DNA of 64,000 bases from Kiritimatiellia bacterium (GCA_040768005.1 JAXGNL010000008.1:5053-69052), one strand, 5' to 3'. Shown: positions 8,930 to 64,000, numbered from the stretch's first letter. Notes: generated by a model from the letters alone, not told the origin. Program-made: numbers and translations.

Positions 8930-8932
8930 GAA

Positions 8933-8946
8933 TGAACGCATGTTCA
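8933..8946. promoter_or_regulatory. Putative LexA operator TGAAC-N4-GTTCA upstream of umuDC
   Basis: TGAACGCATGTTCA, just downstream of a TTGCGC-16-TATATT promoter-like pair on the minus strand. The same motif lies upstream of lexA. Confidence 0.8.
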
Positions 8947-9141
8947 CCAATATATTCCTTTCCCGGCCCGGCGCAAGCCAGGAGTGTCGCCTCTCCGGCT
9001 CGTCCCGCAACGGGCCCGGACACCTCATGTGATTATTCGGTTTTCATCCGTTGCGGCAGAACCGGAGAAAATTCCCGGTTCTTCTTGTCGGCGCTTCGAA
9101 ATACGGGTAGCCTTCCGGAAGAATTCACCCAGGACAGGTGT

Positions 9142-44726: not shown

Positions 44727-45956
44727 TCAGCCCCGCAGGGCCTCGGCGGCGTCGGAAAAGGGCTCGAGGACGCGCGGCAGAACGCCTTTGAGGAAAGAGA
44801 TCACGACACCGTAATTGCTGACGGGCACGGCGCGCGCGCCGGCGGACTGCAGGCGATGGAGCATTTCGCGGCGGTTGATCATGCAGGCCCCGCAGTGAAT
44901 CACCAGGCGGTAGCGGCCAAGATCCTCCGGCCAGTCGCGCCCGGATGTCACGTCAATGTGCAGGTCCTTCCCGGTTTTTTCGCGAAGCCATCGGGGAATC
45001 TTGCGCCGGCCGATGTCGTCTTCCAAGGCGTGGTGGGAGCAGGCTTCGCCGATCAGGATCCGGTCGCCGTCGCGCAGATCGTCAATGACACGCGCCGCCC
45101 GGACCATGGCCGGCAGATCCCCCTTGAGGCGCGCCAGCAGGATGGAAAAGGTGGTGCAGAGGACTTCAGACGGAGTCTCGGCCACCATCCGGTCCACCAC
45201 CTGCGAATCACAGACCACCAGATCCGGCGGAGCCGCCAGTTTTCCCAGCGCGGCGGCATACTCGGTTTCACGGACGGCGATGGCCATGGCCCCTTCGTCG
45301 AGGGCGGCCCGGATGGCCTGGACCTGCGGCAGGATCAGGCGTCCCTTCGGCGCCTCCATGTCCACCGGGACGATCAGCACCGCGAGTCCGCCGGCCGGCA
45401 GGGCGCCGCCGTAGAAGTCCAGAACCTGCAGGGCGCCTTCCGGCGCCAGCCGGCCCAGGGCCTCCTTCAGGGCATTTACCACGGCATCGCGGCGCACGGG
45501 GTCCGGCGAGGATTCCAGCACATGGGGAATGCGCGACCGCAGCTGTTCGAGAAAGGTTCCCGACGGCCGGCGCAGGTCGGTCTTGGCCACCACCGCCAGC
45601 ACAGGCACACCGGCGGCCTGGAGATCGCCGAGCAGGCGTTCTTCGTGATCCGTCCAAACGTCCGGCTCCGTCACCAGTACCGCGGCATCCATCCGGCGCA
45701 GCGCGGCGCGCATCCGCTGGCGACGCGATTCGCCCAGCTCGGTATCGTCGTCCACGCCGCCGGTATCGGTGAAGACCACCGGGCCGATCGGCAGCAGCTC
45801 CATGGTTTTTTCCACGGGATCGGTGGTGGTGCCGGGCCGGGGCGAGGTAATCGCCACGTCCTGCCCCGCCACCAGGTTCAGGAAGGTGGACTTGCCGACA
45901 TTGGTACGGCCGAACAGCCCGATATGCAGGCGCATGGATTTGGGGGTCTTGTCCAT
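44727..45956 (-). CDS. hydF: [FeFe]-hydrogenase H-cluster maturation GTPase HydF
   Basis: GRTNVGKS, PGTTTD, DTGG, ACSH...HCGAC Fe-S motif and VPVSNYG. Confidence 0.9.
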   Translation of the reverse strand: MDKTPKSMRLHIGLFGRTNVGKSTFLNLVAGQDVAITSPRPGTTTDPVEKTMELLPIGPVVFTDTGGVDDDTELGESRRQRMRAALRRMDAAVLVTEPDVWTDHEERLLGDLQAAGVPVLAVVAKTDLRRPSGTFLEQLRSRIPHVLESSPDPVRRDAVVNALKEALGRLAPEGALQVLDFYGGALPAGGLAVLIVPVDMEAPKGRLILPQVQAIRAALDEGAMAIAVRETEYAAALGKLAAPPDLVVCDSQVVDRMVAETPSEVLCTTFSILLARLKGDLPAMVRAARVIDDLRDGDRILIGEACSHHALEDDIGRRKIPRWLREKTGKDLHIDVTSGRDWPEDLGRYRLVIHCGACMINRREMLHRLQSAGARAVPVSNYGVVISFLKGVLPRVLEPFSDAAEALRG

Positions 45957-47740
45957 CAGTCCCGGCCGAATTTCCGGTTCAGCTCGCGCGTGCTGAACAG
46001 GATGACCGTCGGCTTGCCGCGGGGCGAGGTATAGGGCATTTCGGTGCGGGCCAGATCCCGAACCAGCGCGCGGAGTTCGGCATCGGTCAGTTGCCGCTGG
46101 AGCCCCACGGCCTGCCGGCCGGCGGCGGCGGCGATGGCCGGGCGGGCCCAGTCCCGGGCGGTGCCTTTGCCGCCCTGCATGAGGCCGTCGGCGATGTCCG
46201 ACAGCAGGCGGTCCGGGGCGGCCTCCGCCAGCCAGACGGGCAGCGCATCCACCAGAAACGTCCCGGAGCCGAATTCCGCCACGCCGAAGCCCATGGTTTT
46301 CAGCAGGTCCAGATGCTTGCGCAGGGCCTGGCCCTGGGCGGGCGAAGGCTGAATGGTCGCCGGCGGCAGCAGCCCCTGCGAAGGCACCGTGCCTTTTTCC
46401 ACGGCCCCCAGCAGGCGTTCATAAAGCACCCGTTCGTGGGCGGAGCGCGGATCCATCAGCACGAGGCCTTGGTCGGTTTCCAGGACGACATAGCCTTCCC
46501 CCACCCGCCCCAGCAGGCGGTAGCGGCCCCAAGGGCTCTTCGCGGTATCCTCGCCGGATTCCGGCGCCGGAGGGGGCGTCCAATCCAGGCGGGGCTGCAC
46601 CACCGCCGCCGGGGGCGGCGGCGCCGGGACGGACGAAATGGCCGGTTCGGCCGGCCGGCCGGGCGCATCCGGAGCGGTCGCGGGCCGCGCAGAACCGGTC
46701 GCCGGCTCGCGGGTGCGGTCCGGCATGCGGTTTCCCGGCAGCTCCGGTCCGCTGATGGCCATTCGGATGGCCTCGATGACGACATCGCGCACTTCGGTGG
46801 GACGCCGGAACCGGACTTCCTTCTTGGCGGGGTGGACATTCACGTCCACCAGGTCCGGCGGCAGGGAAATCTGCAGAAACAGCGGTGCAAACCGTCCGCC
46901 GGCCAGTACGCTGCGGTAGGCGCTTTGCACGGCGAAATTGAGCACGGGCGACCCGGACGGCCGGCCGTTGATGAACATGACCTGCCACTCGCGATCGAGA
47001 CGGCTGAAGGGCGGCACGCCGGCAAAGCCGCCGATCTCCACCACTCCGTTGCCGAACTGCATCGGCCGCAGATGGGCGGCGACCTCTTCGCCGTAGAGGT
47101 CGCGGATCCGCTCCAGCAGGTCCCGGGCCGCCGGCAGGTTGTACACCTCTTCGTCGTCGGCGCGCAGCACAAAAGCCACCCCGGTGTTGGCCAGCGCCTC
47201 CAGCAGGAACGCCTGGCGCACATGGGTGAATTCCGTCTGGGCCGTGCGCATGAATTTGCGGCGGGCCGGCACATTGAAAAACAGATTGCGCACGGCGATT
47301 TCGGTCCCCGGCGGCACGCCGGCATCGCGCACGTCCTGGATTTTTCCGCCGAAGACCAGGATTTCCGTGCCGGCCGCGGAGCCCGCCCGGTTGGTGGCCA
47401 GGGTGAACTGCGAGACGGCGGAGATGGCCGCCAGGGCTTCCCCGCGAAAGCCCATGGTGGCAATGGAGTCCAGATCCTTCAGCTCGCGGAGCTTGCTGGT
47501 GGCATGGCGTTCGATGGACAGCAGGGCGTTGTCGCGGTCCATGCCGGCGCCGTTGTCGCACACCCGGACCAGGCGCCGGCCGCCGTCCACCACTTCGACT
47601 TCGATCCGGGAGGCGCCGGCATCCAGGGAATTCTCGACCAGCTCCTTCAGCACCGAGGCCGGACGCTCCACGACCTCGCCCGCGGCGATCTGGTTGATCA
47701 CCGCGTCAGACAGCACCCGGATGACAGACGGCTCGGACAT
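45956..47740 (-). CDS. mutL: DNA mismatch repair protein MutL
   Basis: NQIAAGEVVERPASVLKELVENSLDAGA, RHATSK, MGFRGEALA, DVNVHPAKKEVRF, DPRSAHER and SPRGKP. Confidence 0.96.
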   Translation of the reverse strand: MSEPSVIRVLSDAVINQIAAGEVVERPASVLKELVENSLDAGASRIEVEVVDGGRRLVRVCDNGAGMDRDNALLSIERHATSKLRELKDLDSIATMGFRGEALAAISAVSQFTLATNRAGSAAGTEILVFGGKIQDVRDAGVPPGTEIAVRNLFFNVPARRKFMRTAQTEFTHVRQAFLLEALANTGVAFVLRADDEEVYNLPAARDLLERIRDLYGEEVAAHLRPMQFGNGVVEIGGFAGVPPFSRLDREWQVMFINGRPSGSPVLNFAVQSAYRSVLAGGRFAPLFLQISLPPDLVDVNVHPAKKEVRFRRPTEVRDVVIEAIRMAISGPELPGNRMPDRTREPATGSARPATAPDAPGRPAEPAISSVPAPPPPAAVVQPRLDWTPPPAPESGEDTAKSPWGRYRLLGRVGEGYVVLETDQGLVLMDPRSAHERVLYERLLGAVEKGTVPSQGLLPPATIQPSPAQGQALRKHLDLLKTMGFGVAEFGSGTFLVDALPVWLAEAAPDRLLSDIADGLMQGGKGTARDWARPAIAAAAGRQAVGLQRQLTDAELRALVRDLARTEMPYTSPRGKPTVILFSTRELNRKFGRD

Positions 47741-47948: not shown

Positions 47949-48045
47949 CCGGTCATGTCGAGCGAAGTCGAGACATCTCAGCCCTACCCCGACGGCCCGC
48001 CTGCGGGACAAAGCTCAGATCCCTCGACTACGCTCGGGATGACAG
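47949..48045 (+). repeat. REP-like element A (GTCA-tagged palindromic arms)
   Basis: CCGGTCATGTCGAGCGAAGTCGAGACATCTC ... AGATCCCTCGACTACGCTCGGGATGACAG. An inverted copy lies at 58910-58994. Confidence 0.85.
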
Positions 48046-48259: not shown

Positions 48260-49732
48260 CTACAGCACCTGGATCGGAATGTCGTCGGAGGATTCCACGA
48301 CGATCTGCTGCTCCTCGACCGGGAGAAAGGTCGGGAGCAGGCGGTAATACACCTGCAGCGTCAGGGCGGCCAGCGTGGTGGAATAGACCGGGTGATAGTT
48401 TTCGCGGCCCGTGATGCCGGAGCGCAGGGCCAGGCCGGCGGACACCCAGCTGCCGTCTTCGTTCTGGCTGCGGATGAATTCGGGGGCGAATTCGTTGTTC
48501 CACTTCTGCCAGCTGCCGCCGCCCTGGTGGAATTTGGCCTGGGAGATGTAATACCACGCATACATGGGCCAGGCCGGCGGATTGCGCCAGTCGCAGCGGG
48601 CCGCATGCAGGGCGTCGAGACCGCGGCGCACCGCCGGGGAGCGGTGATGCCCGGTCAATTGCAGGCCCAGCACGGCCACCGCCGTGATGGAATCGGTGAA
48701 GTGGCTGCTCCCATCGGTGTAGGCAAACCGCCCGTCGTCGCGCTGGCTGGATTTGAAGTCCGCGGCGGCGAGATCCATGGCGTTCTTGAGGCCGGGATTG
48801 CCGGCGCCGGCGATGAACGCGGCTTTCATGGCCTGCATGCACCAGCCGCCCAGCGAGGTGTCCCGGCGGCCGCCCTTGGCGAAGCGGTAGTCGAATCCGC
48901 CGCCGGCCTGCTGTCCGTCCAGCAGAACCTGCACGCCCTTTTCCATGGCGGGGCGCAGCGCCGGGATGCGCGTCATGCCGTAGGCTTCGCTGACGGCATA
49001 GACGCAGATGGCCTGGGAATAGGTCCCGCCGGTGGTGTCGGTGCGCGCGAACTCGCCGGCCTCGTTCTGCCGCGCCAGCAGATAGCGCAGGGCACGCGAA
49101 ACCGTTTGCCCGTAATTCCTCGACGCCGTGGTTTCCCCATGGGCCAGAAACGTCAGGATGCCGAGCCCGGCATAGGCTTCCCGGTCCTGGGTGCCCCACG
49201 AACCGTCCGGATTCTGGTTGAGGCGCAGCCACTCCAGGGCGCGCCGGACCGCCGCCTCGGCGTGCCGCCAATGCGGGCCGCCGTAGCGTTCGCCGGCGGC
49301 GGCATGGCCCCCCGCTCCGAGGCGGGATTGCAGGGGCGCGGCTGCCAGGTTGGGCATGATCAGCGAACTGGGCACCTGTTCGATGGCCAGCGCCTCCAGC
49401 GTGCGCGGCACGGGATCCGGCAGGGAGAAATCGTACACTTCGGGCTCAAGGGTGAATTCCGGCCGGACATCGGCCGTTTGGATGAAGGTCGGCTCCGGCT
49501 CAAACGGCGTATCCTGGGCCAACGGTTCGATGTCCGGCGGCGGCAGGTCCACATCGGGTTCCTTCACCTCCAGATAGGTCACCTCGATGACGGGCGGCTC
49601 CGGGGGTTCCTTGGCGAAATCGATCAGAAACAGCAGCGCCAGGATCAGCGCGACATGCAGGCAAATCGAGCCGGAAGGCCCCGCCAGCCACTCCGCGATG
49701 TTCCGGTGCAGGGCTTGAATGGACTTGTCCAT
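48260..49732 (-). CDS. Membrane-anchored prenyltransferase/squalene-cyclase-repeat protein, paralog 2 (TonB-like N-terminus)
   Basis: TM GSICLHVALILALL (S-x3-H), Pro/Glu linker, and QW-type repeats QNPDGSWG, QQAGGGF and QNEDGSW. Start trimmed to MDKSIQ. Confidence 0.8.
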   Translation of the reverse strand: MDKSIQALHRNIAEWLAGPSGSICLHVALILALLFLIDFAKEPPEPPVIEVTYLEVKEPDVDLPPPDIEPLAQDTPFEPEPTFIQTADVRPEFTLEPEVYDFSLPDPVPRTLEALAIEQVPSSLIMPNLAAAPLQSRLGAGGHAAAGERYGGPHWRHAEAAVRRALEWLRLNQNPDGSWGTQDREAYAGLGILTFLAHGETTASRNYGQTVSRALRYLLARQNEAGEFARTDTTGGTYSQAICVYAVSEAYGMTRIPALRPAMEKGVQVLLDGQQAGGGFDYRFAKGGRRDTSLGGWCMQAMKAAFIAGAGNPGLKNAMDLAAADFKSSQRDDGRFAYTDGSSHFTDSITAVAVLGLQLTGHHRSPAVRRGLDALHAARCDWRNPPAWPMYAWYYISQAKFHQGGGSWQKWNNEFAPEFIRSQNEDGSWVSAGLALRSGITGRENYHPVYSTTLAALTLQVYYRLLPTFLPVEEQQIVVESSDDIPIQVL

Positions 49733-49807
49733 GACCGCCTCCTTGTTCCATTCGACAGGATACCCCGGTCTCCCGCCGATGTCCACCCCCGCCGGAGACG
49801 CCCGGCC

Positions 49808-51310
49808 TCAGAGGATTTCGATCGTGATATCGTCCTCGGAGGTCTGGTCAATGACCTTGTCTTCGATGGGCTGGTAGGTCGGCAGGAACCGGTAATACAC
49901 CTGAAGAGAGAGCGCGGCCAGCGTGGTGGCATAGACCTTGGTATTGATTTCCTCGCCGCGGAATTCGCGTTCCACGCCGTCGCCGGTCAGCGCCAGGCCG
50001 GGCGACAGCCAGCTGCCGTCCTCGTTCTGGTTGCGGATGAGGGTCGGGGCGCATTTTTCGTTCCAGGACGACCAGGCGGGGCCGCCCTGATGGAAGCGGG
50101 CCTGGGTGACATAATACCAGGCGTAGAGGGGGGCCTGGGGCGGGCGCGACCAGCTGGCATCGGCGTCGCGCAGGAATTGCAGCCCCTGGCGGGTGGCGGC
50201 CTCGCTGCCGTATCCCAGCAGCTGCAGGGAGAGCACGGCGGCGCCGGTGATGTTGGGCTGGCGGCCGGGATTGGAATTGGAATACGGAAAACTGCCGTCT
50301 TCCTTCTGCTTGCTCATGATGAACCGGGCGGCCTTGTCCATTCCGTCCTTGAGGCCGGGGTTCTCCGCGCCGGCGATGTAGGCGGCCTTGAGAGCCTGGG
50401 CGCAGAAGGCGGCCAGGGAGATGTCCCACTGCCCGTAGCCCTTGGAGCCGTCATACGCATACATCTGCCAGCCGCCGTGATCGTAGTGCTTCTGGGCGTC
50501 CAGCAGCACCTGGACCGCCTTCTCCATGACCGGCTTGATGGACGGGATGCGCGTCATGCCGTAGGCCTCGCTGATGCCGTAGGTGGCGATGGCGTGGGCA
50601 TAGCACTTGGGGGCGCCGGTGAACGGCGGCGCAATGAAGCCGCCTTTGTCGTTCTGGCGCGAAATCAGGTAGCGAATCGCCTTTTCGACCGTTTCCCCGT
50701 ATTTCTCCGACGCCGTGGTTTCGCCGTGGGCCAGATAGGTCAGCAGGGCCAGACCGGTGTAGCCTTCCTTGTCCGGAGAGACGGTGCCCCACGATCCGTC
50801 GGGATTCTGGTTGATGCGCAGCCACTCCAGGGCGCGCAGCACGGCGGCCTCGGCGTACTGCCCCCACTTGCCGCCGTAGGCGCCGATCGCCGCCTGGCGC
50901 CCCGCCCCGCTGCGGTTCTTCATGTTGCCGGGTGAGAGATTCTTCATGATGATCGGGCTGAGGGCGTCCGACGCGATGTCCAGTTCGGTCACCGTGTCCA
51001 TGACGGGCGCCGCCGCGAAATCCTGGACGTCCGGAGGCGGGGTCATGTCCATGTCCACGTCCGGCGGCGTGATGGTTTCGACCAGATCCGGCAGCTCCTC
51101 GGGGGGCTTCAGATCCTCCAGCAGATCATCGAGCTGCTGTTCGTCCACCTCGATCACCTTGACCTCGATCTCGGGGGTCTCCTCTTTCGTGGCCAGATTG
51201 ACCAGGAACAGCAGCGCCAGGATCAGGGCGACGTGGATGACGACGGATCCGGTCGGACCGGCCAGCCATTCGAAAATGTTTTTATGCAGCGATCTGAGTG
51301 ATGCATCCAT
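49808..51310 (-). CDS. Membrane-anchored prenyltransferase/squalene-cyclase-repeat protein, paralog 1 (TonB-like N-terminus)
   Basis: TM GSVVIHVALILALL (S-x3-H), Pro/Asp linker, and repeats QNPDGSWG, QKEDGSF and QNEDGSW. Confidence 0.82.
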   Translation of the reverse strand: MDASLRSLHKNIFEWLAGPTGSVVIHVALILALLFLVNLATKEETPEIEVKVIEVDEQQLDDLLEDLKPPEELPDLVETITPPDVDMDMTPPPDVQDFAAAPVMDTVTELDIASDALSPIIMKNLSPGNMKNRSGAGRQAAIGAYGGKWGQYAEAAVLRALEWLRINQNPDGSWGTVSPDKEGYTGLALLTYLAHGETTASEKYGETVEKAIRYLISRQNDKGGFIAPPFTGAPKCYAHAIATYGISEAYGMTRIPSIKPVMEKAVQVLLDAQKHYDHGGWQMYAYDGSKGYGQWDISLAAFCAQALKAAYIAGAENPGLKDGMDKAARFIMSKQKEDGSFPYSNSNPGRQPNITGAAVLSLQLLGYGSEAATRQGLQFLRDADASWSRPPQAPLYAWYYVTQARFHQGGPAWSSWNEKCAPTLIRNQNEDGSWLSPGLALTGDGVEREFRGEEINTKVYATTLAALSLQVYYRFLPTYQPIEDKVIDQTSEDDITIEIL

Positions 51311-51329
51311 GGGGATCTCCGTTCACAAG

Positions 51330-51743
51330 CTAGTTCGATGCGCTGACCACCGAGAGGCTCCTCAATCCGTTCTTGGCGCACAGGTCCAGCGCGTGGATCA
51401 GCTTGCCGTGCTCCGCCACCGCCGACACCGTGATCATGATCGTCTGGCTGGCGTCCACCGCCGCCAGCCGGCCCAGCGCCTTCTCCAGCGCCTCGAGGCT
51501 GACCGGGTTGTCATTGATCGAATACCCGTCCTGATAGACCCCGATGCGCACCATCTGGGGCTCCGGCGCATCTTGCGGTTTGTCCTTGTCGGGCGCCGGC
51601 CGGAAGACGTCGAGGTTGGTGATGACATCAATCGGCTTGATCGTCACGATGAAGTAGATCAGCAGCTGGAACACGACGTCAATCATCGGCGTCATGGACA
51701 GCTCGGGAGGCGGGGGCTCCGGGCGTTTGCGTTTTCGGGCCAT
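51330..51743 (-). CDS. exbD: ExbD/TolR family protein (second copy)
   Basis: LSMTPMIDVVFQLLIYFIV with the conserved TM Asp. Confidence 0.9.
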   Translation of the reverse strand: MARKRKRPEPPPPELSMTPMIDVVFQLLIYFIVTIKPIDVITNLDVFRPAPDKDKPQDAPEPQMVRIGVYQDGYSINDNPVSLEALEKALGRLAAVDASQTIMITVSAVAEHGKLIHALDLCAKNGLRSLSVVSASN

Positions 51744-51762
51744 GGGAAACTCCTCTTCTGGG

Positions 51763-52176
51763 CTAGGACGCTTTTTCCTTCAGCGCGGCGAAGCGGATCT
51801 TCCACAGGCCCACGCTGCCGGCGATGTCCATCACGCGCTTGATCTGTTCATGCTTGGTCAGGGTATCGCCGCGGATGACCAGCGGCGTGCTCTGACCCGA
51901 CGTCTTGACGGCATTGTACAGAACCGTTTTGAGCTGCGCCTCGTTCAGGCGGGTGTGCGCAACGGAGATGATTCCCTCGCTGTCCACGTCCACGACCACG
52001 GTGCGGGGATCCTTGACCTCCTCGACCGGTCCGTGGGGCGACATGGCCATGCGGACCTGGGTTTGCAGGGCCTTCTGGTCCATGTCCACGGTGGTGATGA
52101 AAAAGATGATCAGCTGGAACACGACGTCGATCATCGGCGTCATGTCCAGCTGGGCATCCGGATGGTTCTTTTTCAT
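51763..52176 (-). CDS. exbD: ExbD/TolR family protein (first copy)
   Basis: LDMTPMIDVVFQLIIFFI and LVIRGD...VMD. Confidence 0.9.
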   Translation of the reverse strand: MKKNHPDAQLDMTPMIDVVFQLIIFFITTVDMDQKALQTQVRMAMSPHGPVEEVKDPRTVVVDVDSEGIISVAHTRLNEAQLKTVLYNAVKTSGQSTPLVIRGDTLTKHEQIKRVMDIAGSVGLWKIRFAALKEKAS

Positions 52177-52203
52177 GGGCGCCTCCCGGCCGGCCTCGGG
52201 GGC

Positions 52204-52983
52204 CTATTCCTCCACGACTTCCACGTTGCGCAGGGCCTTGATCAGATCCATGGTCAGCCCTTCCATGCTCAGGATGATGCGGGAGAGCCGGTTCTTGAAG
52301 TAGGTGTAGAACGACACCGCGGGGATGGCGATGCACAGACCGGCGGCGGTGGTCCAGAGGGCCTGGGCGATGTTCATGGCCAGCAGGGACTGCTGGGCGG
52401 CGCCGGCCTGGCTTGTGGCGAGGTTGGCGAACGCCGCGATCATGCCCTGGACCGTTCCGAGCAGCCCGAGCATCGGGGCGATGCTGCCGCACATGTTCAG
52501 GTAGGACACGCGCTGCATCAGCTTTTCGCTTTCGAGATCGGCGGCGGACGCGACCTGTTCCTGAATGACTTCGAAGCCTTCCTTCACGTTGCGGAAGCCC
52601 GCCATCAGGATGGCGCTGAGGACGCCCGGCTCCTGCTCGCAGCGCTGCATGGCCTTCATCACGTCGCCCTGTTCCATCGCCTCGCGCACGTCGTTGACCA
52701 GCGAATCGGGGATGATCTTCTTGGGGTTGACGGTGATGGAGAAGTCAATGGCCAGCCAGGCCGCCGCCACGGAGCAGCCCAGCAGGGCCGTCCACAGAAT
52801 GATGCCCAGCCATCCGGACCCGGCGATGATGGACCACAGGCCCATGCCGCCGCCGTCATCCGCCGCGGCATCGGCCGCCACGGCCTCATCCATGACCATT
52901 TCCTGGGCCCAGCCAACCGCCGGCAGCAGCACCAGGGCGGCCAACACCACCATCCAAATCACCACTAGAGATTTCTTGGACAT
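52204..52983 (-). CDS. exbB: MotA/TolQ/ExbB proton channel protein with N-terminal signal peptide
   Basis: IAPMLGLLGTVQGMIAAF and IAQALWTTAAGLCIAIPA, with a cleavable-looking AVGWA signal. Confidence 0.92.
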   Translation of the reverse strand: MSKKSLVVIWMVVLAALVLLPAVGWAQEMVMDEAVAADAAADDGGGMGLWSIIAGSGWLGIILWTALLGCSVAAAWLAIDFSITVNPKKIIPDSLVNDVREAMEQGDVMKAMQRCEQEPGVLSAILMAGFRNVKEGFEVIQEQVASAADLESEKLMQRVSYLNMCGSIAPMLGLLGTVQGMIAAFANLATSQAGAAQQSLLAMNIAQALWTTAAGLCIAIPAVSFYTYFKNRLSRIILSMEGLTMDLIKALRNVEVVEE

Positions 52984-53022
52984 GTCGTTTTCTCCTTGCT
53001 CGTTTTCTACATCGGTTCGGGG

Positions 53023-53817
53023 CTACAGCTTGGCCTGGGCCTGGGCGGCCTGGGGCGCGGACGGAAACTTCTCCACCAGCCGCCGGTACAGATCCTTGGC
53101 GCGCGGATCGCGCAGGGCTTCCAGGGCCTGGGCGGCCTTGAGATGGGCTTCGCCCTGGATGGCCGGATCCTTGACGTCGATGAACAGGATGGCGGTGCGC
53201 AGGAAGTCCAGCGCGGCCTGTTCCAGGTTGTTCTGGGCCACCTGAATGTCGCCGCGCATGATCTGGGCCCGGGCGGCATCCGGCCGGCTGCCGGAGGCGG
53301 CCACGGCATCCAGTTCGCGGACCAGCGCCGGGTACTGCTTGGCGGCCAGCATGGCCTGGCGCATGCCCCAGGCGGCGTCCGCATTGGTCTTTTTCAGGTC
53401 GGGGGCCAGCGCGAACAGCTTGTTGTAGGCCGCCACCGCCCCCTCGGCGTCGCCCTTGGCCAGGAGCGCCTGCGGCAGGAGCTTCGATGCCTCGATGTCC
53501 CAGTTCAGGAGCCGGTAGTCCGTGATGATCTTGCCCAGCAGCTTGATCGCGTTGTCGTGCTTGCCGGCCCGCAGGGCCTCCACGGCCTGGTCGAATTCGG
53601 CCGGCTTGTCGGCCACCGCCTGCACGTAGCTGCCTTTGGGAAAGGTCTGGATGCCTTTGAGGGTCGTCAGGTTGATGTCGCCGTTCTGGAGGGCGCGGAT
53701 TGCCGTGCCATCCACGCGCCGGCCGTTCTTCAGCACGACATAGGGAGCCGCGAAGGCCTCGCCGACGGCCAGAGCCGCCGCCAACCCGATCCAAGCAAGT
53801 GTCTGTTTCGTCATCAT
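53023..53817 (-). CDS. Secreted TPR-like protein with a small N-terminal beta domain
   Basis: Signal peptide ending EAFA, VVLKNGRRVDG, and helical repeats ending YRRLVEKFPSAPQAAQA (CpoB/BamD-like ending). Confidence 0.75.
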   Translation of the reverse strand: MMTKQTLAWIGLAAALAVGEAFAAPYVVLKNGRRVDGTAIRALQNGDINLTTLKGIQTFPKGSYVQAVADKPAEFDQAVEALRAGKHDNAIKLLGKIITDYRLLNWDIEASKLLPQALLAKGDAEGAVAAYNKLFALAPDLKKTNADAAWGMRQAMLAAKQYPALVRELDAVAASGSRPDAARAQIMRGDIQVAQNNLEQAALDFLRTAILFIDVKDPAIQGEAHLKAAQALEALRDPRAKDLYRRLVEKFPSAPQAAQAQAKL

Positions 53818-53844
53818 GGCTGTTCTTCTCCCTTGTCTACATTC

Positions 53845-56700
53845 CTACGGGGCCGGGGCGGCCTGCTCCGGCGCGGTCGGCGCCACCTCGGCCGCCAGCT
53901 TCAGGGTGGCCGCGGTCCGCTTCTGGCGGATTTCGCCCACCTTGGGGCTGGTGGGATACAGTTCCAGATAGCGGTCCGCGCTTTCGATCACCTCGGCATG
54001 GCGGCCCATCTCGTCGGCCAGCGCCAGGCCTTCGAGAATGGCGGTTTCGATCTGCTTGCGGGCCTTTTCGGTCTTGCCGCCGCCGAAATACTCCAGGCGC
54101 TTGTAGGCCGCCAGCGCGCCGGTCTGGTCGCCTTCGGCCTTGAGCACCTCGGCATAGAGCAGGCTGGTGTCGTTGACCACTTCCGGCTCGCGCGCGTACT
54201 TGAAGATGTCGCCGATGGCCACCTTGGCGGCGGCGAGCTGGTTGAGCTTCATGTTGGCGCTGGCCAGCTTGAGCTTGGCCGGATAGAACAGCGCGGAGTT
54301 GGGCCAGCGCCGCATCAGGTCGTCGAGCGATTCCACCGCGCCGGCATACTGGCCCAGTTCGTAGCGGGCGGCGCCGATGCCGTAGAGGGCGCGCTCCAGC
54401 AGGGCGCGGTCTTCGGTCTTGCCCACCACCTGGCTGAAGGCCTGCTCGGCTTCGGTCCACTGTTCCTTGTCCAGCATGGCCTGGCCCACGCGGACGAATT
54501 CGCCTTCGGAATAGCTGCCGGGGCTGGCCAGCATCGCCCCCAGCGCCTCCCGGGCCTGGTCGAACTGTTCGAGTTCCAGCGCCCCGTTGATGCGCGCATA
54601 CTGCGCGTTCTTGCCTTCATCCGTGTCCGGGTACTCCTGGGCCAGCCGGGCGAAGGTCGCGTTGGCCCCGGGATCCTTCAGGGCCATCTGGAGCGACCCC
54701 TTGAGGTTCAGGGCCTTCGGCGCCAGGGCGGACTGCGGGTGGTACTGGAGGAATTCGTCGAGCTTGGCGACGGCCGCCTTGCGGGTGGCGTCGCTGGGCA
54801 GCCGGCTCAGGCTGAAGGCCAGGTAGAAGCGCGCCTGTTCCAGCAGTTTGGCGTTGCGCTCCAGTTCCTCCGCGCTGCGGCCGTAGGGATTGCCTTCCGG
54901 AGAGAGGGCGGCGACAAGGGCATTGAACTGGCGGACGGCGTTGGGCAGGTCGCCGGTCTGCCGGTAGGAATCGCCCAGCGCAAACATCGCCTGGGCCAGG
55001 TTCGGGCTCGGGCTGCCCTTGCTTTCCTCGATATAGAGCTTCATGCCCTCGACCGCGCCGGCGTAATCCTTGTCCAGATACGACCGCCAGGCGCGCCGCG
55101 ACAGCGCCTTGGTGTAGTTCTGGTCCTGGGGATAGTCGGTAATGATCTTGGCGTAGAACGCATCGGCCTTTTCCTGATCCTTGGCCTGCTCGGCCTTCTG
55201 GGCCAGGTAGAACAGGATCTGGCCCGCGCGGGCATCCCTCGGCGTGTACTTCAAGTACTGGTTGTACATGTACAGCCCCATCTCCGCGTTGCCGCCGTCC
55301 TCGTACAGCTTGCCCAGCGACACCAGCGCCCGCGCCGGGATGTCGCTCTTGCCGGCAAACCGCTCGCCGATGTAGAGCGCGACCATCTTGGCGTAGAGAT
55401 GATCGTTCTGGTGCATGTAGCACTGGGCCAGGTTGCCCAGCGCGCCGATCGAGAGATCGCCCGCCTCCGGGAACTGCTCCAGCACCCGCAGGTATTCCTT
55501 GGACGCCTCTTGGTATTTCTTCTGGCGGAACAGATTGTCCGCCATCATGAATTCCGTCCCCGCCAGCTTGCTGGCCGCCACGGTGGACAGGTCGATCTTG
55601 ACCGTCTTGCCGTAGGTCGTTTCCAGGATGTCCTTGATGGCCTTGGCTTCCATGCCCGCCGCCGGCCCCCAGGGGCTGTCGGCATACTTCACGAACACGT
55701 TGTAGTATTCGCCCAGGGCCTTGCTGTAGGCCGCCACGGCCTCGGCCTCCTTGCCCTCCTGCCCCGCCAGGCGGTCGGCCTCTTCCTTCCACAGGCGCCC
55801 CAGCAGGGAGCGCGCCCCCGCCATCGGGCTCTCCCGCATCGGCATCCCCAGCTCCTTCAGCGTCTCGTCAATCGGCTTGATGATGTCCATGTGGCTCATC
55901 AGCACCTTGCGCGCGCCCTCGGGATTGCCCCGCGCCAGCTCGACATTGGCCATGATCACGATGGAATCCACGAACTGCAGATCCAGCCCGCCCCACTGCA
56001 GGGTTTCGCACAGCTTCAGCACTTCCTCGAGCAGCTTGTTCTTCTCGTCGCCGGACTTCTTTTCCGCCGCCTTCACCAGCGCCTGCGCCCGCGCCAGGAT
56101 CATCGAGCGCTTCAGGTCCGGCGATTCCGTGATGTCCTCGACCCGCTTGTAGCTGACCGCCGCCCCTTCGTAGTCGCCGATCATTTCCTTCATCTGCGCG
56201 TACTGGTAGGCCGCGTCGCGGTAGCGCAGCATCACGTCCTTGTCCGTCGGCGCCTTCCCCTCGTACAGCTTGAAGAAATCATCGTACAGCGCGCGCGCCT
56301 TGTCCGTCTCCCCGATCGCGAAATAATTCTTCCCCAGGGCCAGGCTGATGGCCTGCGCCTGCGGATTGGACATCCCCATCTCCCGCACCAGCGCCTCCGC
56401 CTCGTCGAACTTGCGCCCCTTGATCAGGATTTCGGCCTCGACGACCTTGGTGCGGTCGCGCTGCCCCGGATCCTTCAGCAGTATGGCATCCACCACCTTG
56501 CGGGCGAAATCCGGAAACGACGGTTCAAAGCTGATCAGCCCCGACGCAAACTCCAGGTCCTCGTCCACCCCCGCCCGCACCGTCGCCGCCGTCCCCGCCA
56601 GCAGGGCCGCGACCAGTGCCATCCGAAGCCCCGCTCCCGCGCCCGGCCCCATCCCCCGAAATCCCGGACGCCCAACCGATGAACGCGATTGCAGATTCAT
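53845..56700 (-). CDS. Large secreted TPR protein
   Basis: Signal-like LVAALLAGTAATVRA and many TPR units (e.g. FNALV, YPQDQNY, HPQSALAPKA, WPNSALF, YPTSPK). Exact start uncertain. Confidence 0.8.
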   Translation of the reverse strand: MNLQSRSSVGRPGFRGMGPGAGAGLRMALVAALLAGTAATVRAGVDEDLEFASGLISFEPSFPDFARKVVDAILLKDPGQRDRTKVVEAEILIKGRKFDEAEALVREMGMSNPQAQAISLALGKNYFAIGETDKARALYDDFFKLYEGKAPTDKDVMLRYRDAAYQYAQMKEMIGDYEGAAVSYKRVEDITESPDLKRSMILARAQALVKAAEKKSGDEKNKLLEEVLKLCETLQWGGLDLQFVDSIVIMANVELARGNPEGARKVLMSHMDIIKPIDETLKELGMPMRESPMAGARSLLGRLWKEEADRLAGQEGKEAEAVAAYSKALGEYYNVFVKYADSPWGPAAGMEAKAIKDILETTYGKTVKIDLSTVAASKLAGTEFMMADNLFRQKKYQEASKEYLRVLEQFPEAGDLSIGALGNLAQCYMHQNDHLYAKMVALYIGERFAGKSDIPARALVSLGKLYEDGGNAEMGLYMYNQYLKYTPRDARAGQILFYLAQKAEQAKDQEKADAFYAKIITDYPQDQNYTKALSRRAWRSYLDKDYAGAVEGMKLYIEESKGSPSPNLAQAMFALGDSYRQTGDLPNAVRQFNALVAALSPEGNPYGRSAEELERNAKLLEQARFYLAFSLSRLPSDATRKAAVAKLDEFLQYHPQSALAPKALNLKGSLQMALKDPGANATFARLAQEYPDTDEGKNAQYARINGALELEQFDQAREALGAMLASPGSYSEGEFVRVGQAMLDKEQWTEAEQAFSQVVGKTEDRALLERALYGIGAARYELGQYAGAVESLDDLMRRWPNSALFYPAKLKLASANMKLNQLAAAKVAIGDIFKYAREPEVVNDTSLLYAEVLKAEGDQTGALAAYKRLEYFGGGKTEKARKQIETAILEGLALADEMGRHAEVIESADRYLELYPTSPKVGEIRQKRTAATLKLAAEVAPTAPEQAAPAP

Positions 56701-58816: not shown

Positions 58817-58994
58817 ATTGGCCCTCGTCGCGCGGGGCTCACGTCCCGCGCGGATCCACCCAACCGCACGCGGCAGGAGCCGTGTGCCGCGAAACAACAG
58901 GCTGTACGGCTGTCATCCCGAGCGGAGTCGAGGGATCTCAGCCGGGTCCCGCAGGCCGGGCCCGAGATGTCTCGACTTCGCTCGACATGACCGG
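58817..58994 (-). repeat. Inverted copy of REP-like elements B and A
   Basis: Reverse complement matches 47949-48045 (31-nt arm identical, 29-nt arm with one mismatch) and, more loosely, 48156-48219. Confidence 0.82.
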
Positions 58995-59125
58995 TAAAAT
59001 GTCACTGCATGACTTCATAATCGTAGATGCGCCCTATCGCCCTAGTCGGATTTTATCTTTTCATCGGGCCGAACACCCGCTAGGCTCGCCGGCGAATGAG
59101 AAAGACAACCCCTGGAGGTCTGCCG

Positions 59126-61033
59126 ATGAAATCGAAATTCGCGTTGATGCTGTCCGCCTGCCTGTGCCTGGCGGTTCTGTCCCCCGCCGGAGCCGGCGTG
59201 CTGGGCGTGCTGGAAATCCGCGGCATGGACAATGTCGCCGGAGCGGTCCTGGAACTGAGCCAGGCCGTCGGCCAGCCCGTGCCCCGGGAAGTCATTACCA
59301 TGGGCGTGAACGGCCTGCTGGGTTCGCCGGCCGGCGTGGGCCTGGAGCCCAACGGCACGATCCGGGCCCTGTGGATGGACAACGACACCCCCGCCGGCGC
59401 CCTGGTGCTTCAGCTGCCGGTGCCCGACGACGGCAGCGCCTATCTGTCCGCGCTCGCCGATTCCGGCTGGTCCAGCGACAGCGAAACCACGGACGGCCTG
59501 ATCCATCTGGCCGCCCCGGCCGGCCAGTTCTCCCTGTGGACGGAAGCCTACGCCCTGAAAGGCGAGCGCACCCTGCTGGCCGCCCAGACCGCCCGCGACG
59601 TGCGCGCGGCCGCCGAAGCCGCCGCCGCCCTGCCGGCCATCCTGCCGGTTGAAGGCGTCGCCGCCGTCCAGGTTCACCCCGCCGCCCTCGTGGAAGCCTA
59701 CGGCGACCGCCTGGCCGCCCAGATGCAAGAGGCCTTTGAAGCCGTCCCCGACGAGGCCGGTGATGCCGCCGCCATGGGCCGGCTGTACATCGAAGGCTAT
59801 CTGGCCGTCGGACGCCAGATCCAGTCGTTCGCCGAGGGCATCGGCGTGGGCGATGGCCACCTCCTCCTGCACGTGGACATGACCCCGGTGGCCGGCAGCC
59901 GCCTGGCCCGCTGGGTCGCCACGATCGAGTCCCCCTCCCCGGCCACCGGGGTGGCCAATCTCCCCGGCGCGATCTTTTCCGCCGCCGCCCACCTCGGCGA
60001 CCTGTCGCTGATCCGGGAACCCTATTTCCGCTATATGGAACAGCTGCTGGGCATCATGGGCCGCCAGATGCCCGCGGACTCCATGACCGACTACCTGGAA
60101 TCCCTCAAGGCCTACTGGGAAAACTCCGGCAGCGATTTCGGCCTGGCCGTGCTGCCCCCCACCCGGGAAGCCCCCCTGCGCATGGCCGAATACCTGTCGG
60201 TCCGGAATCCCGCTGCGCTGCGCGGGCTGAATGCCCGGATGATCGGCGCCGCCAACAACCTGTTCCAGGCCTCGATGGCCACCGCCCCCTCCCAGCCCTT
60301 CACGTTCGAACTGGTCGCCGGAGAATCCCGCGAATACCGGGAAATCCCCGTTGACCGTATGACCTACCGCCTCACGGCCGGCCCGGACATGGCGAAAATC
60401 TGGCCCGAAGGCCGCACGCTGGAACTCGGCATCGAACAGGCCTGGCTGCCGGACGGCGTGCTGGTGGGCATCGGCGGCTCCGACATCACCGACCAGCTGG
60501 TGGACCGCGCCCTCGACGGCGCAGCCGCCCCGATCTCGGACCTCGATGCCTGGAAAGCCTTCTTCCCCCGCCCGGATGCGGGCCTGGCGGAAATGGCCCA
60601 TGCCGCGGTGTTTGACGGCCTGCGCGAATATCTCGGCCTGCTGGATTCCGTGACCGGCGAGGAGATGGCCCAGGCCATCCCCGCGGGCCGCGGCAACCTC
60701 TCCTGGCTCTCCTATCGCTCGCCCAACGGCATCCGCGCCCGCATGCGCTTCGGCCTCGACGACCTCGGCGCCATCGCCCAAAAGGCCCGGGAAGCCCAGC
60801 AGCGCGCCGCCGCCGCCCAGCAGGCCCAGATGGAGAAATTCCAGCGCGAACTGGAAGAAGAAGGCTACGATTTCCAGGAGTTGGACGAAGCCGAAACCGG
60901 CGACGGGGAGATGGACGCGGATGAAGCGGACGACTGGGGAATGGAAGAAGACGAGGAAGAAGCGGAGAAGGATCTGTTCGCCCCCGCCGAAACCATCGAC
61001 GAACCCGCCCCCATGGAGGCCATCGAAGACTGA
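59126..61033 (+). CDS. Secreted hypothetical protein with highly acidic C-terminal tail
   Basis: GGAGG RBS, signal peptide MKSKFALMLSACLCLAVLSPAGA and an E/D-rich last ~60 aa. Confidence 0.75.
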   Translation: MKSKFALMLSACLCLAVLSPAGAGVLGVLEIRGMDNVAGAVLELSQAVGQPVPREVITMGVNGLLGSPAGVGLEPNGTIRALWMDNDTPAGALVLQLPVPDDGSAYLSALADSGWSSDSETTDGLIHLAAPAGQFSLWTEAYALKGERTLLAAQTARDVRAAAEAAAALPAILPVEGVAAVQVHPAALVEAYGDRLAAQMQEAFEAVPDEAGDAAAMGRLYIEGYLAVGRQIQSFAEGIGVGDGHLLLHVDMTPVAGSRLARWVATIESPSPATGVANLPGAIFSAAAHLGDLSLIREPYFRYMEQLLGIMGRQMPADSMTDYLESLKAYWENSGSDFGLAVLPPTREAPLRMAEYLSVRNPAALRGLNARMIGAANNLFQASMATAPSQPFTFELVAGESREYREIPVDRMTYRLTAGPDMAKIWPEGRTLELGIEQAWLPDGVLVGIGGSDITDQLVDRALDGAAAPISDLDAWKAFFPRPDAGLAEMAHAAVFDGLREYLGLLDSVTGEEMAQAIPAGRGNLSWLSYRSPNGIRARMRFGLDDLGAIAQKAREAQQRAAAAQQAQMEKFQRELEEEGYDFQELDEAETGDGEMDADEADDWGMEEDEEEAEKDLFAPAETIDEPAPMEAIED

Positions 61034-61682: not shown

Positions 61683-64000
61683 TCAGTCCACGCCCGGGGG
61701 CTTGCCGAGGCTGATCATGCACTTGTCTTCGACCGGCAGTTCCACGTCGGCCTGGCCTTCCGCCACCGGGACATTGGTGGACAGCGTCCAGTTCCAGGCG
61801 CCGTTGGTGATGGTGGTGGCCGTATAGACCGGCAGGCTGGTCACCGAGGGCGGCAGGTCCGCCAGCGTGGCGCGGAAGCCGAACTGGCCGCCGGCCGTCG
61901 TCACGTTGCTGATCTCGGCAATGGCCACTTCCTGCGTTTCGCCGCCGCTGCCGGGCAGAATCGTCACGCTGAAGTTCGTCGTGGCGAAGGCGTCATTGCG
62001 CTGGTTCTGTGCGAGGAAGTAGAACGTGAAGGTCCCGTCGTCCGCGGACGTGAAGGACAGCGTGCCGTTCTCATAGGTGGAAACGAAGGCGGCGGGCGAA
62101 TTGGTCAGGGTCACGACCGGCTCGCCGTCGCCCGTGGCCGTCACGGAGACGGCCACCGCTTCGCCTTCTTCCTTGTCCGCGGGGATGGCGCCGACCTGGA
62201 ACACCGGAGCCGGATAGTCGGTCACGTCCACGAACTGCAGGTACTGCACCACCGCGCCGTCGGCCCAGACCATGTCCGGCGATTCCACGCCGGTGTCCAC
62301 GCCGCCGTCCAGGCCGATGTAGAAGTTCGTGATGATTTCCGAACCGGCCTTGGCCGTGGGCCAGATCAGCGCATTGGTGTCGGCCGCGGCCAGGTTGCGG
62401 ATGTTGTACAAGCGGTCGGCCCGGTCCTCCAGCCCCAGCTTGTCGGCGAAGGGTGAGAGGTCATAGGTCTGGGCGTTGCCGGTCAGGCCGTCCGTGTCGC
62501 CGGTTTCGTTCATGAACAGCACGCTGACGATCACTGAATCGCGGATGTTGGGATTGGCCCCCTCCTCTTCCCACTTGGCCACCGTCATCATGCGCGGATT
62601 GTCGTTCAGGAACCAGCGGTTCTTGCTGCGCAGGGCCGGGCTGGCCAGGCGCGCCTGGTTGACACGCGCGTAGAACTGCGCCATCGCCCGCGAATCGCGG
62701 AAGGTGCCGTTGGTGTAGCACGGATCGTCCCATACGTACATCTGGTTCCACTTCTTGAAGTGGGGGATCCACTTCCCGAAGTTCTGCTCGAAGTGGTAGA
62801 AGCCCTTCCAGGCGTTGATGGTGTCGTTGGTCCCGGCGTAGGGGCTGATGGCGTGTTCCTGGCCGTAGAGCAGCATGGGCACGCCGTCGATGGCGGAGAC
62901 CATCGCGTAGCGCGACGCGGTGGCCCAGGGATCGCCGAAGGGCAGCGGTTCGTCGTGGCTGGTCAGGTTCAGCAGGATGATGCCGTTGCCGTAGAGCGCG
63001 CGGCGCTCTTCCAGCGCAGCCTGCAGGGGCGCAGGTTCGCTGATCTTTTCCTGCGTGAAGCGGAAGACCATGTTTTCGTTCAGGATGTCGAAGTGGCGGT
63101 TCGAGCGCTTGCCGACGAGACCGCCGTCGAGCGATTCGGCCATGAACAGGAAGTTCCATTTCACGGAGCGCGTGCGGTTGATCAGGTATTCCCAGAACTG
63201 GCTGGGCAGGCCCTGCGCGTAGTCGCAGCGCAGGCCGTCGATGCCGTAGTCGTCCAGCAGCACGCCGTTGCCGTCCACCGCACCCGGCTGGTTGGCGCCG
63301 CCGTGGCCGGTCTGCTTGATCCAGAATTCCGGATAGCCGGCCATGTACTTCCACAGCAGCTTGGTCGCCGGCAGCATCTGGTCGTAGTAGTACTGGTCGT
63401 CTTCGTTGTACATCCGGCTGGTTTCCTCGGTCAGCTCGCCGCTGGCCTTCTGCTCCTCGGTGCGGTCGTCGAACCGGATCATGGTGGAATAGTTGCCGTA
63501 GAGCAGCTCGGCCACGTCGTCCCACTTGCCGAAGTCCACCCGCTCGGGCGCGACGCCGATGTCGTTGGTCCGGGCGTTGGTGTAATAGGTCGCCGGCATG
63601 GCGTAGTTGGTGGTGCAGGAGTACCAGTTGATGCCCATCTGGCCGGTGGTGGCGATGCGGCCTTCGGGCAGGAGCGTGGACAGGTCGCCGTAGGCGTTGG
63701 TCAACTCGGCCATGGCGGCCGCGCCGAGGCCGTTGGTGGCCCAGGCCAGCCCCGCGCCGTAGATGGCGTCCCAGCTCGTGTGGTTCATCACGCCGTCGAG
63801 CATCACGTTGATCGTGTTCAGCTCGCGGGCGCCCGGATCCATCGTCTCGCCCCGGGCCCGGTCGCACAGGCGCACGAAGTTCGTGAACGCCGCCACGGCA
63901 GACGCCTCGTCCGCGGCGTCGGACATGTCGGGATTCACGGAGAAGTAGTTCTTCGTGCCGTAGGGGCTGCCGGGCCAGTAGCGCTGGCCAGTGGCCGGAT
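61683..64000 (-). CDS. GH13 alpha-amylase-family glycoside hydrolase, C-terminal part (5' end outside the window)
   Basis: The frame stays open to the window edge (PGSPYGTKNYFSVNP). DGVMNHTS, GIDGLRCDYAQG, FMAES and LTSHDE are GH13 regions I-IV. Confidence 0.85.
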   Translation of the reverse strand, partial: PATGQRYWPGSPYGTKNYFSVNPDMSDAADEASAVAAFTNFVRLCDRARGETMDPGARELNTINVMLDGVMNHTSWDAIYGAGLAWATNGLGAAAMAELTNAYGDLSTLLPEGRIATTGQMGINWYSCTTNYAMPATYYTNARTNDIGVAPERVDFGKWDDVAELLYGNYSTMIRFDDRTEEQKASGELTEETSRMYNEDDQYYYDQMLPATKLLWKYMAGYPEFWIKQTGHGGANQPGAVDGNGVLLDDYGIDGLRCDYAQGLPSQFWEYLINRTRSVKWNFLFMAESLDGGLVGKRSNRHFDILNENMVFRFTQEKISEPAPLQAALEERRALYGNGIILLNLTSHDEPLPFGDPWATASRYAMVSAIDGVPMLLYGQEHAISPYAGTNDTINAWKGFYHFEQNFGKWIPHFKKWNQMYVWDDPCYTNGTFRDSRAMAQFYARVNQARLASPALRSKNRWFLNDNPRMMTVAKWEEEGANPNIRDSVIVSVLFMNETGDTDGLTGNAQTYDLSPFADKLGLEDRADRLYNIRNLAAADTNALIWPTAKAGSEIITNFYIGLDGGVDTGVESPDMVWADGAVVQYLQFVDVTDYPAPVFQVGAIPADKEEGEAVAVSVTATGDGEPVVTLTNSPAAFVSTYENGTLSFTSADDGTFTFYFLAQNQRNDAFATTNFSVTILPGSGGETQEVAIAEISNVTTAGGQFGFRATLADLPPSVTSLPVYTATTITNGAWNWTLSTNVPVAEGQADVELPVEDKCMISLGKPPGVD

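Follow-up and report, generated by a model that had tools for sequence, protein, structure and literature searches.

A motor operon of a Kiritimatiellia bacterium with two TonB/TolA-like anchored proteins that carry toroid heads and are probably force transducers

The DNA discussed here is a window of 64,000 nucleotides (nt) from a Kiritimatiellia bacterium (GCA_040768005.1 JAXGNL010000008.1:5053-69052), and all positions are counted over the whole window. Its minus strand carries an operon of seven co-oriented genes in which an ExbB-type channel subunit and two different ExbD-type subunits are followed by two paralogous proteins, P1 and P2, which begin like TonB and TolA and continue into an (alpha/alpha)6 toroid. 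We consider it probable, at roughly 70%, that this locus is a Ton/Tol-type machine driven by the proton motive force (PMF), in which P1 and P2 are motor-coupled periplasmic force transducers with a toroid head that serves for binding. The chassis of such a machine is already known (PMC12204202); what is new is the toroid head, which is real and widespread. The genes, including two for proteins with tetratricopeptide repeats (TPR), are listed in operon order.

53845..56700, minus strand: TPR-L, exported TPR protein of 951 amino acids (aa), whose actual start may be an internal Met
53023..53817, minus strand: TPR-S, exported TPR protein of 264 aa
52204..52983, minus strand: ExbB/TolQ-like proton-channel subunit of 259 aa
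51763..52176, minus strand: ExbD1, TolR/ExbD-like subunit of 137 aa
51330..51743, minus strand: ExbD2, a second, heterologous TolR/ExbD-like subunit of 137 aa
49808..51310, minus strand: P1, probable TonB/TolA-like anchored transducer of 500 aa with a toroid head
48260..49732, minus strand: P2, the paralogous probable transducer, 490 aa long when counted from its ATG at 49732

The gaps between the genes measure, in this order, 27, 39, 27, 19, 19 and 75 nt. The G+C content at third codon positions (GC3) is 0.85-0.89 in all seven frames and, since the genome as a whole is at about 66% G+C, we take them to be real coding frames; the contig of the window, C8, belongs to an assembly of 2.58 Mb that is 86% complete. 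Pfam finds TPR families, MotA_ExbB, ExbD twice and, in P1 and P2, partial SQHop_cyclase matches. A preliminary description of the stretch, made from the sequence alone, had named seven co-oriented genes with short gaps in just this order, and strand, gaps (19-75 nt) and Pfam all bear it out.

P1 and P2 are 50% identical from end to end. The ATG at 49732 (MDKSIQ...) is most likely the start of P2, rather than the GTG at 49786, because it aligns with the start of P1. The nearest public record is SV3-B9.1, a Kiritimatiellae metagenome-assembled genome (MAG), with 100% identity over P1. The parts of P1 on which the argument turns are the following.

51191..51256, minus strand: transmembrane (TM) helix, residues 19-40 (S22, H26, L33), from the AlphaFold2 helix 19-40 and family alignment A1
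51152..51172, minus strand: D-box-like strand I47-E53 (IEVKVIE), from the hydrophobic/hydrophilic pattern of the TonB D-box
50921..51190, minus strand: linker, residues 41-130, with 12 Pro, 13 Asp, 11 Glu and no Arg
49886..50920, minus strand: (alpha/alpha)6 toroid head, residues ~131-475, from AlphaFold2 and Foldseek
49811..49885, minus strand: acidic C-terminal tail, residues 476-500, ending DDITIEIL, from the common ending of the family

Both proteins place ~18 cytoplasmic residues ahead of a single TM helix (GSVVIHVALILAL in P1, GSICLHVALILAL in P2), and the two helices have S22, H26 and L33 in common, so that the Ser-x3-His helix with Leu at His+7 first noticed in both paralogs stands. 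A family search over 1.84 billion cluster representatives returned 10,195 relatives with E-values up to 1e-3, 800 of them with values up to 1e-30, and the anchor was surveyed in the best 150 cluster representatives, which reach down to ~35% identity. The motif G-P-x-x-S-x3-H is carried by 83 of these 150 (logo E-H-L-x-G-P-x-G-S-x3-H), and 46 of the 83 also have Leu at His+7. In alignment A1, which holds 40 family sequences, G18, P19, S22, H26 and L33 are invariant. Ser-x3-His is thus conserved among orthologs, with the His kept even where the Ser has become Ala. Across the family the helix is immediately preceded by mostly Lys and Arg and immediately followed by mostly acidic residues, from which we predict an N-in, C-out topology with the head in the periplasm and not in the cytoplasm.

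Past the membrane, after a short turn containing Pro, a second element follows at a nearly fixed distance: a strand that begins at His+22 in P1 and at His+23 in P2 (I49-E55, IEVTYLE). The D-box of TonB is an alternating hydrophobic/hydrophilic segment with one hydrophobic pair, flanked by Pro and lying just past the membrane anchor, and the ExbD dimer binds it by strand addition (PMC10907165). When 86 sequences are compared over the seven positions from H+22 to H+28, hydrophobic residues stand at the first (65 sequences), third (64), fifth (64) and sixth (56), acidic ones at the second (48) and seventh (52), and the fourth is mixed. The strict D-box pattern is found in 20 of the 86, 16 of them at the same position, compared with 4% of shuffled segments. 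As a matter of sequence pattern, the family matches the published D-box, which fits a candidate ExbD-binding strand.

The linkers that come next are, as the preliminary description had said, rich in Pro, Asp and Glu, and they have almost no basic residues; the length of ~80-100 aa given there is corrected here to about 90 aa. AlphaFold2 leaves the P1 linker disordered, with a predicted local distance difference test (pLDDT) score <50 over residues 47-60, 72-87 and 96-126. A second type of anchor also occurs in the family, with a longer cytoplasmic N-terminus that bears G-L-K-x-P-K-D-S-G-E-Y-K-Y-A (for example P0157, P0168, P0185 and L079:8821-10458); its members keep the D-box-like strand and the C-terminal tail.

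The motor has the parts expected of the Ton/Tol type. ExbB matches PF01618 at 1.8e-29, and its best NCBIfam model is TolQ, with a score below the cut-off of that model. ExbD1 and ExbD2 match PF02472 at 1e-19 and 1.5e-21, respectively, and each contains the TM motif TPMIDV with its Asp. The hallmarks of a 5:2 motor are present, namely the Thr ring of the ExbB pore (T148 and T181 equivalents) and the TM Asp in both ExbD subunits. Between themselves, ExbD1 and ExbD2 match at an E-value of about 1e-8 only; because they form two separate orthologous groups in every locus, a heterodimer of the two would fit.

Cryo-electron microscopy has placed Ser16 and His20 of TonB, and Ser18 and His22 of TolA, in contact with a Ser and a Trp in TM1 of ExbB/TolQ, which in turn touch a Pro of TM3 (bioRxiv 10.1101/2024.10.08.617233). 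At the positions equivalent to those of Escherichia coli ExbB, the ExbB proteins of 56 toroid cassettes have S34, T148 and T181 without exception and P190 in 55.

The TPR proteins are part of the same unit. TPR-L is the conserved first gene of the cassette, has a signal-peptide-like N-terminus, and matches many TPR families of Pfam, YfiO/BamD-like ones included; it scores 106 bits over 8 repeats with TIGR02795 (YbgF/CpoB), which we read as repeat similarity, not orthology. TPR-S matches TPR_6 and TPR_19, and its N-terminus (MMTKQTLAWIGLAAALAVGEAFA) is likewise signal-peptide-like.

Linkage was followed in a scan of one genome per species that gave 78 loci, labelled Kiritimatiellae, Lentisphaerae, Verrucomicrobiota and Pontiella desulfatans MAG, of which 67 have enough upstream sequence to be assessed. 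A toroid gene lies directly after exbD in 58 of the 67, down to 36% identity, so the homologs are generally linked to exbBD; the full order TPR-S, ExbB, ExbD1, ExbD2 is kept in 53. Tandem duplicates such as P1 and P2 occur in a minority of loci. Class-wide, 105 of the 121 genomes sampled and 71 of the 77 genera have the family, at 1-11 copies per genome, and among these 121 one taxonomic family of ten genomes is without it.

The head of P1 is modelled by AlphaFold2 as twelve helices that alternate between inner and outer, mostly at pLDDT >90, which makes a single toroid of ~345 residues. The QxxDGSW-type repeats that had been noticed after the linker are there, five of them in P1. Against the Protein Data Bank (PDB), Foldseek places the head near AprG (TM-score ~0.68 on the target), then near monodomain squalene-cyclase-like structures (8pak, 8paj), drimenyl diphosphate synthase and squalene-hopene cyclase, and further near AGE-type epimerases, GH76, GH105 and the C3d thioester domain. 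A sequence search of the PDB yields QW-repeat matches to squalene-hopene cyclase only. The head is thus a generic toroid whose sequence repeats are nearest to those of terpene cyclases. No match to TonB_C (PF03544/PF13103) was obtained in P1 or P2, and the TolA C-terminal domain is absent from both in Pfam and NCBIfam scans.

In alignment A1 the head conserves H195, E248, D296, K308, Y237, W302, Y399 and Y400, and its conserved aromatic and charged motifs include GGWxY, RxDxS, FxY and YxWYY. We infer that these motifs sit in the loops leading from outer to inner helices, a placement made from secondary structure and not from coordinates. Such loops are the sugar-binding place of toroid enzymes and of lectin-like toroids. 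Behind the head, 77 of 114 full-length representatives end in YYRxLP, ~30 acidic residues and an alternating hydrophobic strand (DD-I/V-x-I/V-E-I/V-L), P2 with DDIPIQVL. This terminal strand, itself D-box-like, might serve to dock a TPR protein, an ExbD or an outer-membrane partner.

Public records name the family 'terpene cyclase/mutase family protein' or 'prenyltransferase/squalene oxidase repeat-containing protein', and one may ask whether P1 and P2 are membrane-anchored periplasmic enzymes, active on terpenoids or prenyl lipids or on glycans, next to a motor that is merely adjacent or localises them and transmits no force. Beyond these names, squalene-cyclase repeats in Pfam and NCBIfam, structural neighbours that are enzymes (AprG, monodomain class II cyclases, GH76, GH105, AGE epimerase) and the invariant aromatic and charged residues of the head would suit such an enzyme. 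However, a motif search found DxDD, DDxxD and CGEQ in neither P1 nor P2, and no Cys column of alignment A1 is invariant or nearly so, which leaves no conserved Cys as a Zn ligand; a look for cyclase or prenyltransferase metal sites in the barrel, as first proposed, thus came back negative. The Pfam matches cover repeat segments only (SQHop_cyclase_C/N in part, PF13243 in P2, PF00432 below its cut-off), and the NCBIfam squalene-cyclase models give the head 50 bits where the cut-off is 323. There is one toroid and not a beta-gamma didomain, and neither a conserved Ser-x3-His helix nor a D-box-like strand nor a long disordered linker would be needed by an anchored enzyme. Anchored enzymes are, in our judgement, an unlikely account of P1 and P2, and the public annotation of the toroid proteins is misleading.

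Three identities for the head were tried and rejected. A class II terpene cyclase of the squalene-hopene type was set aside for the missing DxDD and for a size of one ~345-residue toroid against a beta-gamma didomain of ~630 aa. The beta subunit of a protein prenyltransferase failed on the lack of a conserved Cys column, the sub-threshold PF00432 match and the lack of an alpha-subunit gene in the cassette, and the thioester domain of alpha-2-macroglobulin/C3 on the absent CGEQ and a weak resemblance of fold. Class II terpene cyclases (squalene-hopene cyclase, the monodomain MstE type) do share with the head their QW-type repeats and (alpha/alpha)6 barrel, whereas the head is single-domain, lacks DxDD, is predicted to be periplasmic and stands on a long linker.

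The working model that we favour for the force transducers is as follows. ExbB and an ExbD1/ExbD2 heterodimer would form a 5:2 motor in the inner membrane, with P1 and P2 docked on the ExbB rim through the Ser-x3-His helix. The periplasmic domains of both ExbD subunits would grip P1 and P2 by the D-box-like strand, 22 (P1) or 23 (P2) residues past the His, and the work of the motor would travel along the ~90-residue acidic, Pro-rich linker to one (alpha/alpha)6 toroid head. The head would act as a binding module, not as an enzyme, and its target might be a protein or glycan located either in the outer periplasm or at the outer membrane. As for the two exported TPR proteins, they probably serve as partners or scaffolds in the periplasm.

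Binding is favoured over catalysis because the head lacks the signature motifs of the enzyme families nearest to it, because it is a single toroid, and because the same chassis bears a vWA (von Willebrand factor A) adhesion fold in a sibling cassette of the same genome, described below. The preliminary description had proposed a PMF-driven machine whose barrel, catalytic or binding, is the effector. Its transducer part is supported, and none of the contrary findings it had named (Ser-x3-His not conserved, homologs unlinked to exbBD, a cytoplasmic barrel, a canonical tonB or tolA as the conserved partner) was made; its catalytic option now appears unlikely, to judge from the lack of DxDD and of the other signatures.

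Several observations weigh against the transducer reading and should be kept in view. The position of W38 in E. coli ExbB is Ala, Val or Phe in the cassette proteins, with a Trp one residue later in 25 of 56, so that the docking site is only partly conserved, which speaks against a plain copy of the E. coli interface. In some P2 orthologs the Ser is replaced by Ala (GPxGAxxxH; L005, L007, L010, L012, L016), with the His kept, ~30 of the 150 representatives have the second anchor type (SGEYKxA) without Ser-x3-His, and the fourth residue of the SHLS motif is V37 in P1 and I37 in P2. Nine of the 67 assessable loci are without motor linkage; most of these retain Ser-x3-His, and their neighbours, mostly housekeeping genes, offer no clue to a substrate. 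Many of the conserved aromatic and charged residues of the head could equally suit an active site. Gene content, motifs, fold, synteny and distribution are observed here, and docking, force transmission, ligand and physiological role are proposed.

Force need not be the point of the anchor. P1 and P2 might be envelope sensors, with a toroid that detects a periplasmic ligand or the state of the envelope and an anchor that passes this information on to the cytoplasm or the motor, in the way of TonB-dependent trans-envelope signalling. Some members do have N-terminal extensions resembling anti-sigma domains (P0123), an unlinked paralog with such an extension lies right behind a gene for an extracytoplasmic function (ECF) sigma factor (L073:1941-4307), and the anchors of the second type share a conserved cytoplasmic module. 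Yet only ~18 residues of P1 and P2 are cytoplasmic, most members have no cytoplasmic domain, and the cassette itself holds no regulator gene, all of which makes a purely sensory role very unlikely.

It is also important to ask what else in this genome an ExbB-type motor could serve, since the assembly holds at least six.

Contig C6: a classical Ton set of ExbB, ExbD and a TonB_C protein, beside a receptor with a Plug domain
Contig C34: ExbB, ExbD and a TonB_2/TolA-like protein with its own Ser-x3-His
Contig C8: the toroid cassette
Contig C25 (L081:6036-14190, minus strand): three TPR genes (an SNase domain in one of them), ExbB, a PD-(D/E)XK (PDDEXK_3) gene, two ExbD and a 350-aa protein
Contig C24 (L082:4218-11672): a 1280-aa protein without a Pfam family, ExbB, one ExbD and a 789-aa TPR protein
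Contig C84: ExbB and ExbD on a short contig

The set on C24 has no recognisable transducer. On C25 the PDDEXK_3 gene sits between exbB and exbD, and the 350-aa protein has an SLLVH helix and a C-terminal domain with a vWA fold (pLDDT >90), whose nearest matches are ITIH1, CLCA1 and an aerotolerance-related protein of Bacteroides fragilis; this cassette is of the vWA transducer type of Williams-Jones et al. (PMC12204202). The toroid cassette's ExbB has its nearest counterpart in the vWA cassette (3.8e-29), with the Ton-type ExbB proteins at ~1e-8 to 1e-9. As one genome carries a vWA head on the C25 cassette, the chassis appears to accept different heads.

Canonical partners lie elsewhere. Assembly-wide, TonB_C is found on C6 and C34, Plug on C60 and C6 (two Plug domains) and OmpA-like domains on C27, C20 and C9, and TolB_N has no match past its cut-off in the 86%-complete assembly. 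The window was said at the outset to lack TonB_C, a TonB-dependent receptor, tolB and pal, and indeed no such matches occur on C8. The TonB_C genes stand on other contigs with ExbBD sets of their own, and none is a conserved partner of the toroid cassette. That the likeness to TonB and TolA is a coincidence, the motor serving a canonical TonB/TolA elsewhere or the TPR proteins alone and P1 and P2 being unrelated bitopic proteins kept by synteny like mutL, is hardly credible: the TonB/TolA-like protein of C34 with its Ser-x3-His, the Ton set of C6, a conserved mutL neighbour of no obvious functional link and the variable ExbB Trp38 position can be cited for it, but every TonB_C gene is paired with its own ExbB and ExbD, the conserved S, H and L together with a D-box-like strand at fixed spacing over 35-100% identity exceed what a plain TM anchor needs, and the strict D-box is found in 20 of 86 sequences (16 at one position) against 4% in shuffled controls.

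Reading the motor and the toroid proteins as one machine brings the locus closest to the vWA-headed force transducers of bacteria of the Planctomycetes-Verrucomicrobia-Chlamydiae (PVC) group, whose type organism is Tichowtungia aerotolerans, of the Kiritimatiellota (Williams-Jones et al. 2025, Mol Biol Evol, PMC12204202). Both have TPR gene(s), a tolQ-like gene and two heterologous tolR-like genes, and in both the transducer is bitopic, combining a helix of the SHLS type with a motor-box strand and a disordered linker, ~100 residues long in the vWA system. They differ in the head, here a terpene-cyclase-like (alpha/alpha)6 toroid instead of a vWA domain, and in the two tandem paralogs with their conserved acidic tail and terminal strand. 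'Toroid', 'prenyltransferase', 'squalene' and 'terpene' are words that the main text of that paper does not use, and a literature search for ExbD or TonB with prenyltransferase, squalene, toroid or terpene cyclase gave no account of a toroid partner. The initial remark that no account of such repeat proteins as TonB/TolA substitutes was known therefore needs amending as to the chassis, published with vWA heads, and holds for the toroid head, which is unreported there.

Like P1 and P2, TonB has an N-in single TM helix with Ser-x3-His, a D-box past the membrane and a Pro-rich linker, and its gene follows exbB-exbD directly; unlike TonB, P1 and P2 are without the TonB C-terminal domain, and their cassette has no TonB-dependent receptor, two different ExbD subunits and TPR proteins. 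With TolA they share the S, H and L of SHLS, an ExbB that scores best with the TolQ model and TPR repeats of the CpoB/YbgF type, whereas domain III is missing, neither tolB nor pal is linked, and the fourth SHLS residue is Val or Ile. In gene content alone, one TolQ-like and two TolR-like subunits together with TonB-like and TPR proteins also recall the AglRQS-Glt machinery of Myxococcus; Glt homologs did not show up in the window, and the toroid head of the partner is a further difference.

A further, indirect likeness is to the mucin utilisation locus MUL1 of Akkermansia muciniphila, reportedly described by Davey et al. in 2023. In that species mul1A is Amuc_0544, termed a mucin transport gene (PMC12570417), and its neighbour Amuc_0546 is listed as a biopolymer transporter of the ExbD/TolR type (PMC11480725). 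These gene labels, taken from the literature, would agree with the presence of a TPR-plus-motor cassette in a second class of this phylum.

What the machine is for can be argued in two directions. One possible role is Tol-like, in the envelope, and the near-universal cassette, its housekeeping neighbourhood, the CpoB-type TPR repeats and the lack of a TolB match all speak for it. The other possible role is in uptake or capture; here the variable copy number, unlinked heads that keep the docking helix, the few Plug receptors and an indirect link to Akkermansia MUL1 can be cited. Kiritimatiellia and Lentisphaeria have few TonB-dependent receptors. A bolder proposal, which we put forward as doubtful, is that the cassette is a general proton-powered device for glycan capture or import, with interchangeable toroid hands sharing one motor, a C-terminal strand that beta-augments a TPR or outer-membrane partner, and the same chassis as the mucin-uptake locus MUL1.

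Ton and Tol were long the sole known carriers of inner-membrane proton energy across the periplasm, until the 2025 paper added transducers with vWA heads. With a toroid version present in ~87% of the genomes sampled from a whole class, the TonB/TolA anchor looks like a general handle into which varied periplasmic heads can be plugged, and polysaccharide-degrading PVC bacteria gain a core envelope machine. If the head binds glycans, this would bear on how polymers are taken up by bacteria that have so few receptors of the TonB-dependent kind. Because cultured relatives carry the cassette (for example Pontiella desulfatans MAG, L080), genetic and biochemical work is feasible.

In the window the cassette is surrounded by housekeeping genes (mutL, hydF, RNase Y, PFOR and lexA), and no genes for carbohydrate-active enzymes or receptors turned up among the neighbours scanned. 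A scan for promoters and terminators found nothing exceeding chance. The mutL gene (45956-47740) has a wider history as a neighbour, lying directly downstream of the toroid gene(s), co-oriented with them, in 31 loci that reach down to ~42% identity (L053, L062), and in L079 it even stands between exbD2 and a toroid gene. A 26-nt repetitive extragenic palindromic (REP)-like element, GTCATCCCGAGCGTAGTCGAGGGATC, flanks the operon in opposite orientations at 48018-48043 (minus strand) and 58912-58937 (plus strand); these are two copies with <=1 mismatch, where chance would give no match.

Alongside these, the window holds three further frames worth recording. At 59096-61033 (plus strand) lies an open reading frame (ORF) of 645 aa with high GC3, no Pfam family, a signal-peptide-like start and a strongly acidic C-terminus. 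A 751-aa ORF at 61683-63938 (minus strand), also with high GC3 and no Pfam family, has only a weak match resembling the alpha-amylase MalA. The third, at 8932-10971 (plus strand), encodes a metacaspase-like protein of 679 aa with a caspase domain (Peptidase_C14) and a PPC pre-peptidase domain.

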